64,000 nucleotides of DNA from Escherichia phage Delraymugoa. The DNA is taken from the sequence record OR896825.1. One strand, 5' to 3'. The translations under genes and the position numbers were made by a program. Shown here piece by piece: positions 1,125 through 42,868 of this stretch; position 1 is the first letter of the stretch, and every line of letters starts with the position of its first letter. The notes beneath the pieces were generated by a model. It did not search any database and had not been told where the DNA came from. It worked only from the letters and a program-made list of their open reading frames with translations.

Positions 1125-1153
1125 ATTATGCTATAGGCGTGATCTGGTGTCAA
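1125..1153 (-). promoter_or_regulatory. early promoter TTGACA-N17-CATAAT
   Basis: revcomp 1148-1153 TTGACA; revcomp 1125-1130 CATAAT. Confidence 0.55.
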
Positions 1154-1173
1154 CAACTTTTTTAATTTTTTGG

Positions 1174-1202
1174 AAATAAAAAAGCCGACACTAAGGTCGG
1201 CT
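1174..1202 (-). terminator. rho-independent terminator (hairpin AGCCGAC/GTCGGCT followed by U-run on minus strand)
   Basis: stem 1183-1189/1196-1202, A-run 1174-1183 on plus = U-run on minus transcript. Confidence 0.6.
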
Positions 1203-1209
1203 AATAAAA

Positions 1210-1518
1210 TCATTTAGACAAATAATCATTCAGTGCAATCCGGTCGGCGTATGCTGGTGTTACGTCAATCGCAATCACTTTAACGCGTGCTTTCTTGCGA
1301 CCTGGGTTTTCTCGTAACCAGTGCTCATGACCGTGAACATTTTTATACTTTGATGCTTCTTCAAATGTACGGATCGGACCTGGATAATCTGCGTAAAGGA
1401 TCTCTAGGTCTTCGGTGATGTAAAAATATACATCATAATTACTGTTCTCTAGTTTAAGCAGAGACTTTCGGAACATTGGGAGATTTTCGCGGGTAAATTC
1501 AAAGATATTATCTTTCAT
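1210..1518 (-). CDS. hypothetical protein, HxHW-AVDV paralog family member
   Basis: motifs HGHEHW and VIAIDV shared with five other ORFs in 1.9-4.7 kb. Confidence 0.55.
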   Translation of the reverse strand: MKDNIFEFTRENLPMFRKSLLKLENSNYDVYFYITEDLEILYADYPGPIRTFEEASKYKNVHGHEHWLRENPGRKKARVKVIAIDVTPAYADRIALNDYLSK

Positions 1519-3468: not shown

Positions 3469-3497
3469 ATCTTACTACTCCCTTTAATCATTGTCAA
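3469..3497 (-). promoter_or_regulatory. early promoter TTGACA-N17-TAAGAT with GGGAGTA...TACTCCC hairpin (PeSL)
   Basis: revcomp 3492-3497 TTGACA; hairpin gggagtatcttactactccc. Confidence 0.5.
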
Positions 3498-3500
3498 CTA

Positions 3501-3668
3501 TTATTTGTTAATTTCCGGTGCGTTGCTCGGATAGTAACCTTCTTTAACACCCAGATATTTTGCGACCATTCCGGTGATCTTCTGTGCTACTACGATATCG
3601 AATTTCAGGTAATCTTCACCGTGGTTTGCTACAATGTATGCTTCGCATTCTGCTTTAGTCTGGAACAT
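3501..3668 (-). CDS. small hypothetical protein (55 aa), paralog of 219..386 (start trimmed)
   Basis: MFQTKAECEAYIVANHGEDYLKFDIVVAQKITGMVAKYLGVKEGYYPSNAPEINK; ATG at 3666-3668 after conserved leader. Confidence 0.6.
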   Translation of the reverse strand: MFQTKAECEAYIVANHGEDYLKFDIVVAQKITGMVAKYLGVKEGYYPSNAPEINK

Positions 3669-3702
3669 TTTTGATTCTCCTATATCTCGTTGGTATGTGT
3701 GC

Positions 3703-3731
3703 ATTATAGGGGATCGGTGATCCCCTGTCAA
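3703..3731 (-). promoter_or_regulatory. early promoter TTGACA-N17-TATAAT with GGGGATCACCGATCCCC hairpin spacer (PeSL)
   Basis: revcomp 3726-3731 TTGACA; revcomp 3703-3708 TATAAT. Confidence 0.65.
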
Positions 3732-3738
3732 CAACTTT

Positions 3739-4047
3739 TTATTCTTCATCTTCATCTTTATCTTGATATGCGTACTTCATAAATTTGTCTGCTACTTTGT
3801 CCGCGTTTTCAGGTTCTACGTCTGACGCTAGGACAACAGCTAGTTCGGTTTTGTCGTTTCCATCATACCAATGATTATGAGTGTCGTTTTCTTCGATATA
3901 AAACGAATCATTTGGAGTTGTGCGACAATATACGTCTAAATTCCCATCGATATAAAAGATCCAATCCGAATACAAAATGATTGTTTTAGCAAGATTTTTA
4001 TTGCCTTCAACGAAAGGTTCGGCTACAAACAAATTAGTATGTTCCAT
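3739..4047 (-). CDS. hypothetical protein, HxHW-AVDV family (start trimmed to MEHTN)
   Basis: THNHW and ASDV motifs; RBS GAGGAAA before ATG 4045-4047. Confidence 0.5.
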   Translation of the reverse strand: MEHTNLFVAEPFVEGNKNLAKTIILYSDWIFYIDGNLDVYCRTTPNDSFYIEENDTHNHWYDGNDKTELAVVLASDVEPENADKVADKFMKYAYQDKDEDEE

Positions 4048-4063
4048 AGTAATTTCCTCAAAA

Positions 4064-4255
4064 TTATACAGCTTCGTAAACTTCCCAATGTCCAACACCA
4101 GCACGCTTAACGAAAAGGTTTTCTTTGATGTTATTCATAAACGTCTGGATGGATTTAATGCGATTTGAAGGTTTCCAGTCTTCGTTGGTATTGCGTCGAT
4201 ACATCATAACATTACCAGTTCGCTTATATTCAGCAACCATTTTAAGACCACACAT
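4064..4255 (-). CDS. small hypothetical protein (63 aa)
   Basis: ORF with RBS GAGGATAA. Confidence 0.4.
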   Translation of the reverse strand: MCGLKMVAEYKRTGNVMMYRRNTNEDWKPSNRIKSIQTFMNNIKENLFVKRAGVGHWEVYEAV

Positions 4256-9722: not shown

Positions 9723-10621
9723 TAAAAGTCTCCGTAGTTAACCTGAAAACATTCTACACCAATTGAGCGGTACATGTCAACCACTTGATCACGGTCATCT
9801 ACTGCCAACACAACATGATAACGCGGTGCAATTTCAGAGAAGAAAATCTCTTTCTTCACTTCATGATCAGGACGACGATCATTAGTTTCACGTTGAAAGT
9901 GATCGCTAGGTTCAATACCCTGTTCACGCAGCCATTGCAGAGTATCTTCTTCGCAAACATCCTCACGCCCTGAGCATGTAATGATACGATAACCATTATC
10001 ACGATACAGTTTAAGCATTTCGACCACTTGCGGACGAGGTTTATCTTCTTTGACCTTTGTCCAGTCAAACGGATGACGACCGCCCTTATCCGCTAATGTC
10101 CCATCAATATCAAAGATCACTGCCTTTGGCAGCATGGTATTCGGTTTGTATACTTCTTGACCCATATATTCCTGCATCAGATAAAATTGGTTGCGCAAAT
10201 GAGAAAGTGGAATTGCTTTCTCACCGCGATAGAAATTACGTTTCTTTAGTGTCTCAAATGATTCATTGAACACTTGTTCAGTATACACCGCGTTAAATTC
10301 TTTTGCAAGTTCTTTGTAGAATACACGATGTTTTTCTTTCAGGTTGGTATCGGAGATAATGATACTCAATCCGCGTGATAGAGTCTCACGAGCAATCATT
10401 CTCTGAATAGACTCTACCAGCTTTTCTTTTTCCTTAGTATACTTGTATTTCAAATGTGAGTCAACACCAAACAACATAAGACGAAGATCATCACGATTCA
10501 CATTACGATAATTACTAAACCGTTTACATGTTTCCATCGCCCATGTAGTTTTACCGGACCCAGAACAACCAACGGTTAAAATCACTTCACATTTCGGCAT
10601 TATTTCTCCTTCGGTTTGCAC
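9722..10621 (-). CDS. pseT: polynucleotide 5'-kinase/3'-phosphatase
   Basis: Walker A GCSGSGKTT and HAD motif VIFDIDGTL; 299 aa as T4 Pnk. Confidence 0.85.
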   Translation of the reverse strand: MQTEGEIMPKCEVILTVGCSGSGKTTWAMETCKRFSNYRNVNRDDLRLMLFGVDSHLKYKYTKEKEKLVESIQRMIARETLSRGLSIIISDTNLKEKHRVFYKELAKEFNAVYTEQVFNESFETLKKRNFYRGEKAIPLSHLRNQFYLMQEYMGQEVYKPNTMLPKAVIFDIDGTLADKGGRHPFDWTKVKEDKPRPQVVEMLKLYRDNGYRIITCSGREDVCEEDTLQWLREQGIEPSDHFQRETNDRRPDHEVKKEIFFSEIAPRYHVVLAVDDRDQVVDMYRSIGVECFQVNYGDF

Positions 10622-13465: not shown

Positions 13466-13494
13466 ATCTTACTACTCCCGTGATATGCTGTCAA
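13466..13494 (-). promoter_or_regulatory. early promoter TTGACA-N17-TAAGAT with GGGAGTA..TACTCCC hairpin (PeSL)
   Basis: revcomp 13489-13494 TTGACA. Confidence 0.5.
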
Positions 13495-13690: not shown

Positions 13691-13719
13691 ATATTACTAC
13701 CCCCGTTTCATGCTGTCAA
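13691..13719 (-). promoter_or_regulatory. early promoter TTGACA-N17-TAATAT with hairpin (PeSL)
   Basis: revcomp 13714-13719 TTGACA. Confidence 0.5.
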
Positions 13720-13971: not shown

Positions 13972-14000
13972 ATATTACTACCCCCGTTATTCAGTGTCAA
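13972..14000 (-). promoter_or_regulatory. early promoter TTGACA-N17-TAATAT with hairpin (PeSL)
   Basis: revcomp 13995-14000 TTGACA. Confidence 0.5.
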
Positions 14001-38692: not shown

Positions 38693-38938
38693 TTGGCGCA
38701 TAGAAGCCCCTGAATCGCATTTTGACGCTGTATGATGAAAACAGGTAGCGTACCAGTCATCGGCTTGTTTGTCTTCGTCAGAAAACTCATAATTTCGTTG
38801 TATGCCGTTTTCTACTTTGACCAGTTCAATAGCTGTTTCTGGAAGATCAATCAGTCGGACAAAATCACCATCTTCCCACTCTACACGAGCAATATCATAT
38901 CCCATCTCAAAGTATACAATCGCTTGTTCTAATTTCAT
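38690..38938 (-). CDS. hypothetical protein (82 aa)
   Basis: ORF. Confidence 0.4.
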   Translation of the reverse strand: MKLEQAIVYFEMGYDIARVEWEDGDFVRLIDLPETAIELVKVENGIQRNYEFSDEDKQADDWYATCFHHTASKCDSGASMRQ

Positions 38939-39264
38939 TCTGGAAACTTCCCGTAAACATTCTCTGCCAGCTTACGTGCATCTTTTACAATATCTTTCAT
39001 GTAATGACTATAATTTTTAGCTAGATCAATGATGCAATCAACAAAGAAGTAATAGCGTCGCAGTGCTACCAGCTCAACATCTTCAAGATGACCATTTTCT
39101 CCAATCGCTGAAATATGTTTAAATTCCTTTCGGATCGCGTCCATCGCTACATTAACTTCTTTTATAATATCTTTCGTATTATATGCACCTCGACTAATCA
39201 AAATTTTGGTTAGGTCTTCTGCTTTTTCGTGAAAGTTGTCAATTTCAAACTCGATCATAATCAC
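38935..39264 (-). CDS. hypothetical protein, paralog of 39373..39705
   Basis: shared C-terminus ENVYGKF / ENIFGKF and helical pattern. Confidence 0.45.
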   Translation of the reverse strand: MIMIEFEIDNFHEKAEDLTKILISRGAYNTKDIIKEVNVAMDAIRKEFKHISAIGENGHLEDVELVALRRYYFFVDCIIDLAKNYSHYMKDIVKDARKLAENVYGKFPE

Positions 39265-39372: not shown

Positions 39373-39705
39373 TCAAAATTTACCGAAAATATTCTCTGTC
39401 ATAATTCTTGCTTCGTCGATTATTTTCGTCATGTTCATGGTGTAGTTATGATCATTTAGTGCCTTAATGACAACGAGCAAGGAATCTAAAAACACTCGAT
39501 ACCGGGTATATTCTACGCTATTTGTGAATACCGATGTTTTCTCTACTTTATCGATCAGATAGCCTAAAACCGATAGCGCCTCGTTTACTTCCCTTGTTAC
39601 TTTATCTGCGCTAAACAACACCGGATAAAGACGCGGTGTGATTAACCGCGCTGCCTCTTTCAATTCGGTCGCTTTCCATGATTCATATTTGTCATAGTTA
39701 AACAT
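39373..39705 (-). CDS. hypothetical protein, paralog of 38935..39264
   Basis: see above. Confidence 0.45.
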   Translation of the reverse strand: MFNYDKYESWKATELKEAARLITPRLYPVLFSADKVTREVNEALSVLGYLIDKVEKTSVFTNSVEYTRYRVFLDSLLVVIKALNDHNYTMNMTKIIDEARIMTENIFGKF

Positions 39706-40652: not shown

Positions 40653-40940
40653 TTATTTTCTGTTGTGGTCACGATATGTTTTAAAATATCCCTCGTACCA
40701 CGGTAAAATATCTGGATTTTTACCACTATACAGACCTTTAACCATCATGTCAATAAGGCCATCTGGTGTTTGATAGTTTCCAGCTTTTATAAGCTCTCTG
40801 ATTAAAATCTCTCTGTATATGTCTTTCGGATCTTCGTAATCAACTTGTATTGTGGTTGTGGTCTCATTCAATTTGGTTTCTGGATTATCTCGCATCGCAT
40901 CCCACCAATCTTTTGTGCTCTTCATGTTATTGAATTGCAT
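40653..40940 (-). CDS. hypothetical protein (95 aa)
   Basis: ORF. Confidence 0.4.
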   Translation of the reverse strand: MQFNNMKSTKDWWDAMRDNPETKLNETTTTIQVDYEDPKDIYREILIRELIKAGNYQTPDGLIDMMVKGLYSGKNPDILPWYEGYFKTYRDHNRK

Positions 40941-40951
40941 AATTTAACCTC

Positions 40952-41710
40952 TTACTTGCAAACGTATTGATCTACATCAATTGCGCCACCGAATGTAGGA
41001 TGACGTTTTTCAAATCTAATAGTTCCGTCGTTTGGTTCGAAAACGGAGTATTCATATAGATCTTTCTTGCCAACATTCTTATAAAACCCGCCTTTAGTCA
41101 TAACGGTTTCTTGTACGTTTGCTTTGTGTACGTTGTATTCGTCAATGTATACAAAATCAACCATCTTCCCATTTTTAATGGTTACTTTAAGATCTCCTGG
41201 TTGATTTCCATATTTGGCATACAGTGGCGCTTCTTTAATTTTTGTGGAAATTCCATCTTTCATACTCCACTCATAACGAACGGTGCATTGATAGGTAAAA
41301 GTTTCGACCTTCGGTTCTTCGACCACTTTTGCTTCCTGTTTCGGTTGTTCTTCTTCAACCTTCGCAGAAGTCTCTGAATCGCTTTCTGACGCGGTTTCTT
41401 CTTTAGGTAATACATTCATCAAGTTTTGGATTTGAGCGTTATATACAGCCTCCAGTGGCTGAATCTGCCCGATATTGATCATTGTATCACGAACAGTTTT
41501 ATTCCAGTTTCGTTGCTCTTGTTTCAGAGACGGATCAATCTTAACAGCCTTAACATACACCTCATGAAGTTTAGAGTCCAGTGCGGAGATAGACTCATTA
41601 GCACAAATAAACTTCTCTGATTTGGTAGTAGCTTTAGCGCAATCAAAGGACGCAGCGTTAGCACCGAAAGCAGTAGCAGAAAGAACGATAGCAGCGATAA
41701 TGTTTTTCAT
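40952..41710 (-). CDS. secreted protein with DUF1311 (LprI-like) N-terminal domain
   Basis: signal peptide MKNIIAAIVLSATAFGANA; motif C.KATTKSEKFICANESISALDSKLHEVY...QRNW; acidic linker; Cys-containing C-terminal domain. Confidence 0.55.
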   Translation of the reverse strand: MKNIIAAIVLSATAFGANAASFDCAKATTKSEKFICANESISALDSKLHEVYVKAVKIDPSLKQEQRNWNKTVRDTMINIGQIQPLEAVYNAQIQNLMNVLPKEETASESDSETSAKVEEEQPKQEAKVVEEPKVETFTYQCTVRYEWSMKDGISTKIKEAPLYAKYGNQPGDLKVTIKNGKMVDFVYIDEYNVHKANVQETVMTKGGFYKNVGKKDLYEYSVFEPNDGTIRFEKRHPTFGGAIDVDQYVCK

Positions 41711-41744
41711 AATATATTCCTCACTGTTTTGTCTTGATGGGAGT

Positions 41745-41773
41745 ATCTTACTACTCCCTTAATCCGGTGTCAA
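41745..41773 (-). promoter_or_regulatory. early promoter TTGACA-N17-TAAGAT with hairpin (PeSL)
   Basis: revcomp 41768-41773 TTGACA; hairpin gggagtatcttactactccc. Confidence 0.5.
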
Positions 41774-41784
41774 CTACTTTTAAA

Positions 41785-42105
41785 TTATTTTCGCCATTCA
41801 CCGGAAACAATAAAGTTTGTAAAGTGATCGTGGTCCATGATAACGTCATTAAGTACCATATGTGGATACACTTTAGTGATAATTTTACTAAGTACCATAT
41901 GCGGATATGCTTTAGTGTAATCACGTTTACGATCAGTCATCCAGCCAACGAAAGTTGGTGCAAAGTACGGTACACCGTCAGACGATGCCATATTAAACCC
42001 TTTATCAACCATAAATGCAGCCGCCCTAAGATTTTTAATTGAAGTAGTGCGACTAATTTCAAAAACTTTATCGGTAAAATTCATTTTAAGCCCCCGCTCG
42101 TGCAT
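41785..42105 (-). CDS. hypothetical protein (106 aa)
   Basis: ORF. Confidence 0.4.
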   Translation of the reverse strand: MHERGLKMNFTDKVFEISRTTSIKNLRAAAFMVDKGFNMASSDGVPYFAPTFVGWMTDRKRDYTKAYPHMVLSKIITKVYPHMVLNDVIMDHDHFTNFIVSGEWRK

Positions 42106-42295: not shown

Positions 42296-42360
42296 GTGAT
42301 TCTCCTTTCGTTTGGTATGGGAGTATGTTACTACTCCCTTATCTTTACGTCAACTAGTTT

Positions 42361-42603
42361 TTAGAAATTTTTCGCTTCTTCTTCGGTCATCATCACCGCG
42401 CATTCGTGCATAACTTTGAAAACCGGGTCAATCATATCGAATGCTTCGCTGGACAGTTTACGAGAAGCGATTTTGATTGCTTCAACGTCTTCTACTACAG
42501 GAACAAAAACAGTTTTCAGTTCGTCGAGCACGGCAGCTTCTTTTTCATTCAGGAAGATCCCAGCGTCGTACAGTGCAACTTCGATAACATTAACTTTAAC
42601 CAT
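42361..42603 (-). CDS. hypothetical protein (80 aa, start trimmed to MVKVNVIE)
   Basis: ATG 42601-42603 after conserved leader. Confidence 0.45.
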   Translation of the reverse strand: MVKVNVIEVALYDAGIFLNEKEAAVLDELKTVFVPVVEDVEAIKIASRKLSSEAFDMIDPVFKVMHECAVMMTEEEAKNF

Positions 42604-42637
42604 TTTTATTTCCTCCAGTTCGTTTCGGTATGGGAGT

Positions 42638-42666
42638 ATAATACTACCGATGACCTTTGGCGTCAA
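42638..42666 (-). promoter_or_regulatory. early promoter TTGACG-N17-TATTAT
   Basis: revcomp 42661-42666 TTGACG. Confidence 0.45.
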
Positions 42667-42868
42667 CTGCTTTTTTATTATTTTCGTGAAAATTTTTCGT
42701 CGCCTCATGTGCTTTTCGCTGGGCTTCTTGTTGTGCTTGCTGGCGTGCTGCCTCTTGTGAAGCCATAACGGAAGCATTTGCAGCAGTTACAGCCGCTACC
42801 ATCGCTGCGGTATTAGCATTTACAGTACATGCACTAGCCAGCAAAGCAATTGCAATCATTTTCTTCAT
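42644..42868 (-). CDS. small lipoprotein (74 aa)
   Basis: signal peptide with lipobox LLASAC, Ala/Gln-rich mature part. Confidence 0.5.
   Translation of the reverse strand: MKKMIAIALLASACTVNANTAAMVAAVTAANASVMASQEAARQQAQQEAQRKAHEATKNFHENNKKAVDAKGHR

Follow-up and report, generated by a model that had tools for sequence, protein, structure and literature searches.

In the 64,000-nucleotide stretch of Escherichia phage Delraymugoa analysed here (OR896825.1; the whole stretch is referred to as the window), the open reading frame (ORF) at 40952..41710 on the minus strand starts with ATG, encodes 252 aa followed by a stop codon, and corresponds to RB49ORF260c (UniProt Q7Y3G7, PHROG 14799), hence the name ORF260c used below. 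Comparison of this gene with its relatives revealed two points that appear to be new: a near-invariant signal peptide and LprI domain are combined with at least four discrete versions of a predicted beta-barrel, by recombination in the linker that joins them, and the same gene occupies the outermost position in an E. coli prophage integrated in hicB. We tentatively propose that the ORF260c protein, made early and exported, serves in the periplasm as a binder with two modules that would neutralise incoming attackers of the envelope, with lysozyme-like hydrolases as the likeliest targets, in a manner similar to Spackle or to immunity proteins of type VI secretion systems (T6SS), with the barrel alleles serving as alternative specificities; we favour this explanation, while holding it to be somewhat short of probable.

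Export signal and domain architecture of the ORF260c protein

The genome from which the window derives is that of an RB49-like T4-type coliphage of the genus Krischvirus. The 1.6 kb around the ORF were 95-98% identical to phages FL37, kaaroe, FL15 and Sf20 (E. coli K-12 is the annotated host of the first three) and 98% identical to RB49 over the aligned 81%, and the window as a whole is equivalent to RB49 coordinates ~119-164 kb plus 1-16 kb. The ORF product shared 99.6% identity with the RB49 protein (AAQ15486.1, 'hypothetical protein') and was 100% identical to the proteins of FL15 and LF73P4. No function is assigned to PHROG 14799, and the automatic UniProt name of Q7Y3G7 is 'Lysozyme inhibitor LprI-like N-terminal domain-containing protein'; a weak DUF1311 match of RB49ORF260c (E=0.2) was listed already in 2006 (PMC1524935).

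The N-terminus of the protein begins with M-K, continues with a hydrophobic core of 12 residues, IIAAIVLSATAF, and ends in GANA/AS (the slash marks the cleavage position), which satisfies the -3/-1 rule with an AxA site. In our analysis, which for this feature was heuristic only, these residues form a signal peptide of the signal peptidase I type (aa 1-19, MKNIIAAIVLSATAFGANA/A; 41654..41710, minus strand), and no lipobox of the form [LVI][ASTVI][GAS]C was found within the first 40 residues. The 'A/ASFDC' sequence at the junction with the mature protein was also kept in distant phage homologues.

The signal peptide is followed by a helical domain of the LprI/DUF1311 type (aa 20-100; 41411..41653, minus strand), which was delimited on the basis of Pfam, the AlphaFold2 (AF2) model and sequence invariance. 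The hidden Markov model (HMM) of PF07007 (LprI, formerly DUF1311) matched aa 24-76 with E=1.4e-5 and 25.8 bits, above the curated Pfam cut-off of 22, and the same threshold was also exceeded by the Phi1-type, prophage and Klebsiella homologues. In the AF2 model the domain consists of helices at residues 30-37, 39-58, 62-80 and 83-98, with block-mean values of the predicted local distance difference test (pLDDT) of 64-83 over aa 21-100. Cys24 and Cys36 were present and invariant among the homologues, and the C-terminal part of the domain contains no cysteine. A search with the 86-aa LprI domain alone returned no candidates, which reflects a word-index limitation of that search, and a search with an alignment of the LprI domains of five phages retrieved solely short LprI-only proteins with uninformative names.

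Between the two domains lies an acidic linker rich in Glu, Lys and Pro (aa 101-136; 41303..41410, minus strand), in which 11 of the 36 residues are Glu and the isoelectric point is 4.4; it is predicted to be disordered, as indicated by its composition and by pLDDT values below 50 over aa 104-131 of the AF2 model. The remaining residues (aa 137-252; 40955..41302, minus strand), modelled alone, yielded an 8-stranded up-and-down beta-barrel with a pLDDT of 88.8 and a predicted template modelling score of 0.81, which we call type A to distinguish it from the other alleles of this domain. Its two cysteines bracket the domain: Cys142 belongs to the first strand, Cys251 to the last. Since the terminal strands are neighbours in the model and both residues are invariant, a Cys142-Cys251 disulfide probably closes the barrel. 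The features that the sequence-only reading had described in this phage DNA, namely the ORF with its coordinates (on the minus strand), a Sec-type signal peptide, DUF1311, an acidic linker and a C-terminal domain containing cysteines, were therefore all recovered, including the DUF1311 match and the signal peptide on whose presence that reading had staked itself.

A phmmer search of the C-terminal domain against 1.84 billion representative proteins returned nothing but the family itself and three repeat-protein matches, which we judged to be spurious. Searches of the PDB with full-length and C-terminal profiles found nothing besides a PhoU-like protein (E ~1e-3 to 0.02), which is helical and was rejected as incompatible with a beta-barrel. 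With Foldseek, the two-domain model had no PDB match at E<=0.001, the structures retrieved being just generic lipocalin, fatty acid-binding protein and TbpB barrels, so that, at the level of the model, the resemblance to known folds appears generic. The fold search in BFVD retrieved, besides the protein of RB49, lipoprotein-like phage barrels without names and gave no functional lead, and PADLOC gave a single sub-threshold match of 13-14 bits.

Early promoter, allelic barrels and prophage copies

Upstream of ORF260c we noticed a composite element of ~65 nt, made up of an A-rich tract, GTTGACA, a 9-nt interval and the stem-loop GGGAGTAGTAAGATACTCCC holding the -10 hexamer, followed by a Shine-Dalgarno sequence and the ATG. 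In the window this cassette extends over 41739..41800 (minus strand) and comprises the A-rich UP-like tract at ~41774-41795, the -35 hexamer TTGACA at 41773-41768 and, after a 17-nt spacer, the -10 hexamer TAAGAT at 41750-41745, which is overlapped by the stem-loop GGGAGTA-GTAAGA-TACTCCC (41758-41739; 7-bp stem and 6-nt loop). The Shine-Dalgarno sequence GAGG lies at 41719..41722, and the ATG at 41710 is 9 nt further on. A scan of the region for sigma-70 promoters gave 17 sites against 18.9 expected in shuffled sequence, and thus no excess. The site in front of ORF260c nevertheless goes beyond chance, because it is part of a repeated element, of which the window has at least six copies; two of these carry the compensatory stem change GGGAG/CTCCC to GGGGG/CCCCC. 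The five other copies (42325..42353, 3478..3497, 13475..13494, 13700..13719 and 13981..14000), all on the minus strand, have the same layout of -35, stem-loop and -10, and the computed fold of the stem-loop agreed with the predicted one. The stem-loop of the ORF260c copy has no U-tract.

This layout is of a kind already known. Arbiol et al. (2010, PMC2839356) described the PeSL (promoter-early stem-loop) class in RB49 and phi1, and this class shares with our element the A-rich tract, the consensus -35, the stem-loop overlapping the -10, the Shine-Dalgarno sequence with ATG, and the repetition. From its sequence the element is a member of this class, of the subclass with the stem-loop over the -10. 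Promoter and terminator activity was shown by reporter assays for other copies, and PeSL-type sigma-70 promoters belong to the class used immediately after infection (PMC2839356). The promoter scan and the six-copy alignment thus uphold the earlier suggestion that the gene has its own early promoter, in the form of a PeSL copy, and by analogy ORF260c would be expressed early from it.

The PeSL copy also marks one border of a mosaic. Among 20 homologues, the first ~105 residues of the protein were almost invariant, whereas past the linker just C142, G153 and C251 were invariant. The C-terminal domains fell into at least four types: A in RB49 and the window, B in prophage and metagenomic sequences, C in Phi1, and D in JSE and prophage sequences. 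Types A, B and C shared 28-42% pairwise identity. For type D only the first strand could be aligned with A, B or C (hhalign probability 37%), and because of this limited alignment type D may be a replacement and not a diverged homologue.

At the DNA level, identity to RB49, Phi1 and JSE was at least 93% from the -35 of the PeSL (41774) to the end of the linker (~41310), and upstream of the PeSL all three phages were unrelated to the window. Over the barrel and the downstream 95-aa ORF (40653..40940, minus strand), identity to Phi1 and JSE fell to 35-55%, and below 40643 it was back at 92% or more. The downstream ORF is RB49ORF259c-like, belongs to PHROG 15915 (function unassigned), has no signal peptide and is co-transcribed with ORF260c; it diverges along with the barrel, being 49-50% identical in amino acids to the Phi1 and JSE versions. 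Since identity falls and recovers at these borders, the swapped unit, as judged from the alignments, is the barrel together with the downstream ORF, with one junction at aa 124-136 of the linker and the other close to the early promoter that comes next. A near-consensus sigma-70 site, TTGACA-17-TATAGT (11/12 matches; 40725..40753, minus strand), lies in the 3' part of the 95-aa ORF, just ahead of the point at which Phi1 and JSE become similar again, and is likely to form the right-hand boundary of the cassette. The ORF260c element sits exactly at a recombination junction, as do PeSLs at gene-shuffling junctions; the other junction of the cassette, however, is not at a PeSL but within the coding sequence, in the acidic linker.

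Of the 43 Krischvirus records with a type A barrel, 41 had it at 99-100% identity and the other two at 95.8%, and type C was found in 12 records. Because of the near-identity of type A across these 43 records, the barrel types are discrete alleles under purifying selection and not a hypervariable region. In a crude test we saw no co-variation of the barrel allele with the tip of gp37: alleles A, C and D all occurred with the same tip similarity class, and allele A was found with gp37 tips of 71% to 99% identity.

A chromosomal gene annotated as 'lysozyme inhibitor LprI family protein' was present in 26 of the 5426 complete E. coli genomes. The 5' half of the prophage gene was ~95% identical in nucleotides to the phage gene, with identity beginning 6 nt before the ATG. 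In the loci that we examined for context, it was the outermost gene of a prophage that encodes a gpA-type terminase and an Rha regulator and that truncates hicB, which is a classic position for a moron. Barrels of type B or D were found at this same hicB site in different strains, and a type C barrel was present in one further E. coli-labelled protein (P0013), considered here at the protein level only. The LprI gene has a G+C content of ~39%, as do the phage and the prophage arm, and the flanking chromosome has 49%.

Between the stop codon of the prophage LprI gene and the truncated hicB we found a remnant of an ORF259c-like gene of 25-29 codons, located at 9768..9857 and 9774..9857 in two E. 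coli chromosome stretches (L007 and L008, respectively). Because this truncated remnant follows the prophage gene, the sequences indicate that the transfer went from a Krischvirus-like virulent phage to the prophage. The downstream ORF is dispensable, since just a remnant of it accompanies the prophage copies.

The layout of signal peptide, 'A/ASFDC' LprI domain, linker and a C-terminal domain with two cysteines, unrelated in each case, recurred in a 250-aa protein that Klebsiella Marfavirus PWKp18 encodes between genes 61 and 56, in Aeromonas phage AS-sw (239 aa) and in the lambda-like phage ev099 (232 aa, adjoining xis and int).

Proposed function and alternative explanations

According to our proposal, the PeSL would drive expression right after infection, and the protein would be exported by its Sec signal peptide to become a soluble periplasmic protein, in which the flexible acidic linker tethers the barrel to the near-invariant helical LprI domain. 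It could then act as a stoichiometric binder, or guard, of envelope-attacking proteins that enter from outside, the likeliest targets being lysozyme-like peptidoglycan hydrolases, e.g. a T6SS muramidase or the gp5-type tail lysozyme brought by a superinfecting phage. The constant LprI domain might be responsible for hydrolase binding or anchoring, and the allelic barrel for a second or alternative specificity. A virulent phage would thereby exclude superinfection and resist lysis from without; for a prophage the gain would be protection of the lysogen.

Several observations are in favour of this proposal. The LprI family has been repeatedly tied to neutralising wall hydrolases that act in the periplasm, which by analogy suggests a similar role here: Etsi4, a DUF1311 protein of enterohaemorrhagic E. 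coli able to neutralise a periplasm-acting effector, saves E. coli cells in which the T6SS effector Etse4 is expressed in the periplasm (PMC12981562), and secreted LprI-only proteins adjoin lysozyme-like or LysM T6SS effectors in Pantoea (PMC9796082) and Salmonella (PMC8867033). The discrete C-terminal alleles on an invariant N-terminal module could be signs of antagonistic co-evolution, and the prophage moron copies a sign of a host-independent function. The signal peptide and the PeSL fit a protein that is periplasmic and early, and the purifying selection on type A likewise speaks for the proposal. The architecture also parallels that of M. tuberculosis LprI, in which DUF1311 is likewise followed by a beta-barrel, the MliC domain that is sufficient for its lysozyme resistance (PMC7933661).

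A further argument comes from what appears to be a vacant niche in RB49. A lysozyme domain (PF00959) is present in its gp5, and the candidate for its endolysin is a Peptidase_M15_4 protein, not a muramidase or a T4 e-type lysozyme. RB49 also encodes an RI antiholin (PF24205, E=3.5e-23), and RB49-type phages have RI.-1 and holin T in addition. Neither Spackle nor Imm was detected by annotation, tblastn or the Spackle HMM in RB49 1-125 kb and the window. In T4 it is the tail lysozyme of gp5 that Spackle (gene sp / 61.3) inhibits, and not the endolysin (PMC7677548). A periplasmic muramidase inhibitor would, by analogy, fill this role in RB49, and since the endolysin candidate is an M15 peptidase, it would spare the phage's own lysis.

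ORF260c resembles the LprI family, as represented by LprI, ScwA and Etsi4, in the above-threshold HMM match, the predicted export, the N-terminal pair of cysteines and the helical domain. It differs in that it is phage-encoded, is not a lipoprotein, matches two-thirds of the profile and combines an invariant N-terminal module with an allelic C-terminal domain, an orphan barrel that is not MliC. Like T4 Spackle, it is a phage protein that has a signal peptide and a small helical domain with cysteines, and that is presumably made early and soluble in the periplasm. The two proteins have, however, no sequence relationship (a Pfam scan of ORF260c at E<=10 gave LprI alone, and not the Spackle family PF25676), and ORF260c is the larger of the two, with two domains. 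It differs from the lipoprotein exclusion factors of the Llp/Cor type by the lack of a lipobox, and it had no HMM match to the RI antiholin family of T4 (PF24205).

On the other hand, several points weigh against our proposal. The PF07007 alignment covers just positions 1-71 of the 106 of the profile. ScwA, an LprI-only protein of Salmonella, gives no protection against lysozyme (PMC7933661). The Pfam name 'lysozyme inhibitor LprI' is weak evidence of function, because it was passed on from the M. tuberculosis protein, in which the MliC domain is enough for resistance to lysozyme (PMC7933661), and because ScwA is not protective. The Spackle and Imm searches in RB49 were sequence searches only. 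Moreover, Marfavirus PWKp18 encodes a true Spackle (PF25676, E=8e-28; 1140..1421 of the stretch L013) in addition to its secreted LprI-headed protein (3501..4253), the two genes being 2 kb apart with the primase gene between them. Because both coexist there, they are not simple substitutes for one another. We had also considered a complementary distribution of Spackle and LprI-headed proteins as a general rule, and rejected it, as Marfavirus phages carry both. Finally, if the conserved gp5 lysozyme is the target, the existence of at least four barrel alleles is left unexplained.

The sequence-only reading had suggested that the protein protects the wall, delays lysis or excludes superinfecting phages. 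The last of these roles is the most compatible with our results, and a delay of lysis the least, because RB49 already has RI and because the gene also lives in prophages.

Alternatively, the protein could be an orphan immunity protein against bacterial weapons, such as T6SS hydrolases or periplasmic toxins of the pesticin or colicin type, with one toxin per barrel allele, in which case the phage would gain by keeping the infected cell or the lysogen alive in dense communities. DUF1311 proteins do act, or are predicted to act, as T6SS immunity proteins, in E. coli as well; genes for the fitness of lysogens typically occupy moron positions, and the discrete alleles resemble immunity-gene arrays. 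We nevertheless consider this explanation unlikely, as no effector gene was found nearby in phage or prophage, PADLOC and Pfam gave no match of the barrel to an immunity family, and the gain for a virulent phage with a short latency is not evident, yet type A is near-identical in 43 Krischvirus genomes.

The protein might also be a true inhibitor of the MliC/PliC type, as the sequence-only reading had suspected of its C-terminal domain, with a highly diverged barrel that blocks c-type or phage lysozymes by occupying their active site. The modelled fold, a disulfide-bracketed 8-stranded antiparallel barrel, would agree with this, the sequence of MliC (PDB 2F09) also begins with 'YQC' and has a terminal Cys, and the order of domains is that of M. 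tuberculosis LprI. In a Pfam search of 14 C-terminal domains at E<=10, however, there was no MliC (PF09864) or other credible match, but just six scattered sub-threshold ones, the best with E=0.0056. Comparison by hhalign with an MliC/PliC profile, built from an alignment of the E. coli, P. aeruginosa and Brucella proteins in which the E. coli member had been checked against 2F09, gave a probability of 0.3-0.4%, and the ORF260c barrel is longer by ~40 residues. The SGxxY motif of the lysozyme-contact loop was absent from all barrel alleles, as was W[ST]KG; the strings nearest to SGxxY, KGGFY in type A and HG[AKL][KT][FY] in type D, have no Ser and are not conserved between alleles. The Brucella protein PhiA, which has the MliC fold without SGxxY, inhibits neither SagA nor hen egg-white lysozyme in vitro (PMC8334348). 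Since profile similarity and the motif are both lacking and PhiA is inactive, the barrel is not, by its sequence, a member of MliC/PliC and is better treated as an orphan domain. This makes inhibition of the MliC/PliC type quite unlikely; the missing motif and the inactivity of PhiA count against our own proposal as well.

A very unlikely explanation is exclusion by masking of a receptor or another part of the envelope, like that exerted by T5 Llp or Cor, in which the barrel, by attaching to a transenvelope component or to an outer-membrane receptor from its periplasmic side, would prevent adsorption or the entry of DNA. It would be in line with the presumed early expression in the periplasm and with the location of the tail-fibre gene 37 and the holin gene t 3 kb away, and the allelic variation could follow receptor use. 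However, Llp-type proteins are lipoproteins and ORF260c has no lipobox, host receptors are conserved on their periplasmic side, which leaves four alleles unexplained, and the missing co-variation of allele and gp37 tip argues weakly against it. Least likely is a role in tuning the peptidoglycan enzymes of the host or the time of lysis. The protein would then control a lytic transglycosylase, as the periplasmic LprI-domain protein ScwA regulates the levels of MltD and causes lysis on overproduction (PMC7933661), or would bind the periplasmic domain of holin T like an antiholin. The example of ScwA and the proximity of t lend this some support, but RB49 already has RI, the gene also occurs in prophages with a lambda-type gpA terminase and a relative of it in the lambda-like ev099, both without a T4 holin, and conserved host enzymes leave the allelic barrels unexplained.

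Returning to the proposed guard against incoming envelope-attacking proteins, it could be extended to a modular allelic exclusion system of the periplasm that is shared across phage lifestyles, with a constant LprI 'handle' and interchangeable barrel 'heads' (unrelated heads in other phages), each directed at a different incoming phage or toxin protein. Cassettes would then move between virulent T4-like phages and E. coli prophages, and the barrel allele would set which competitors are excluded. We regard this extension as doubtful.

Few periplasmic exclusion or immunity proteins of phages are understood mechanistically, among them Spackle, Imm, Llp and Cor. For RB49-type phages, which lack a recognisable Spackle or Imm, ORF260c is a concrete candidate for the prevention of superinfection, and if the proposal is true, it would provide the first phage function for the widespread DUF1311/LprI domain. 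If the alleles set the specificity of exclusion, this would have a bearing on the design of phage cocktails, Krischviruses being in therapeutic use. If ORF260c turns out to be inert in exclusion assays, it stays one more annotated hypothetical protein. Apart from its function, the gene documents that E. coli prophages have captured a gene from the hyperplastic region of a virulent T4-like phage.

Neighbouring genes

ORF260c is located in an early minus-strand hyperplastic block, with the topoisomerase gene 52 on one side and the holin gene t on the other, and for all ten neighbouring ORFs Pfam and PHROGs gave unknown function. The gene immediately upstream of the PeSL (41785..42105, minus strand; 106 aa) matched PHROGs 19692 and 21159. 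It also matched kaaroe and FL37 and was unrelated to the genes of RB49, Phi1 and JSE at that position. We noticed in it an internal direct repeat, YPHMVLSKIITKV / YPHMVLNDVIMDH (DNA repeat ...CATATGGTACTTA...), and a repeat_region is annotated inside the kaaroe equivalent.

Further upstream, a 74-aa ORF (42644..42868, minus strand) has an N-terminus resembling a signal peptide (MKKMIAIALLASACTVNA/N) and a mature part rich in Ala and Gln, and may encode a second small secreted early protein; it had no PHROG or Pfam match and is overlapped by a 138-aa ORF in another frame (42361..42777). On the other side of ORF260c, the ORFs at 38935..39264 (109 aa) and 39373..39705 (110 aa), both on the minus strand and separated by a 43-aa ORF, both matched PHROG 9457 and look like a local gene duplication within the hyperplastic region.

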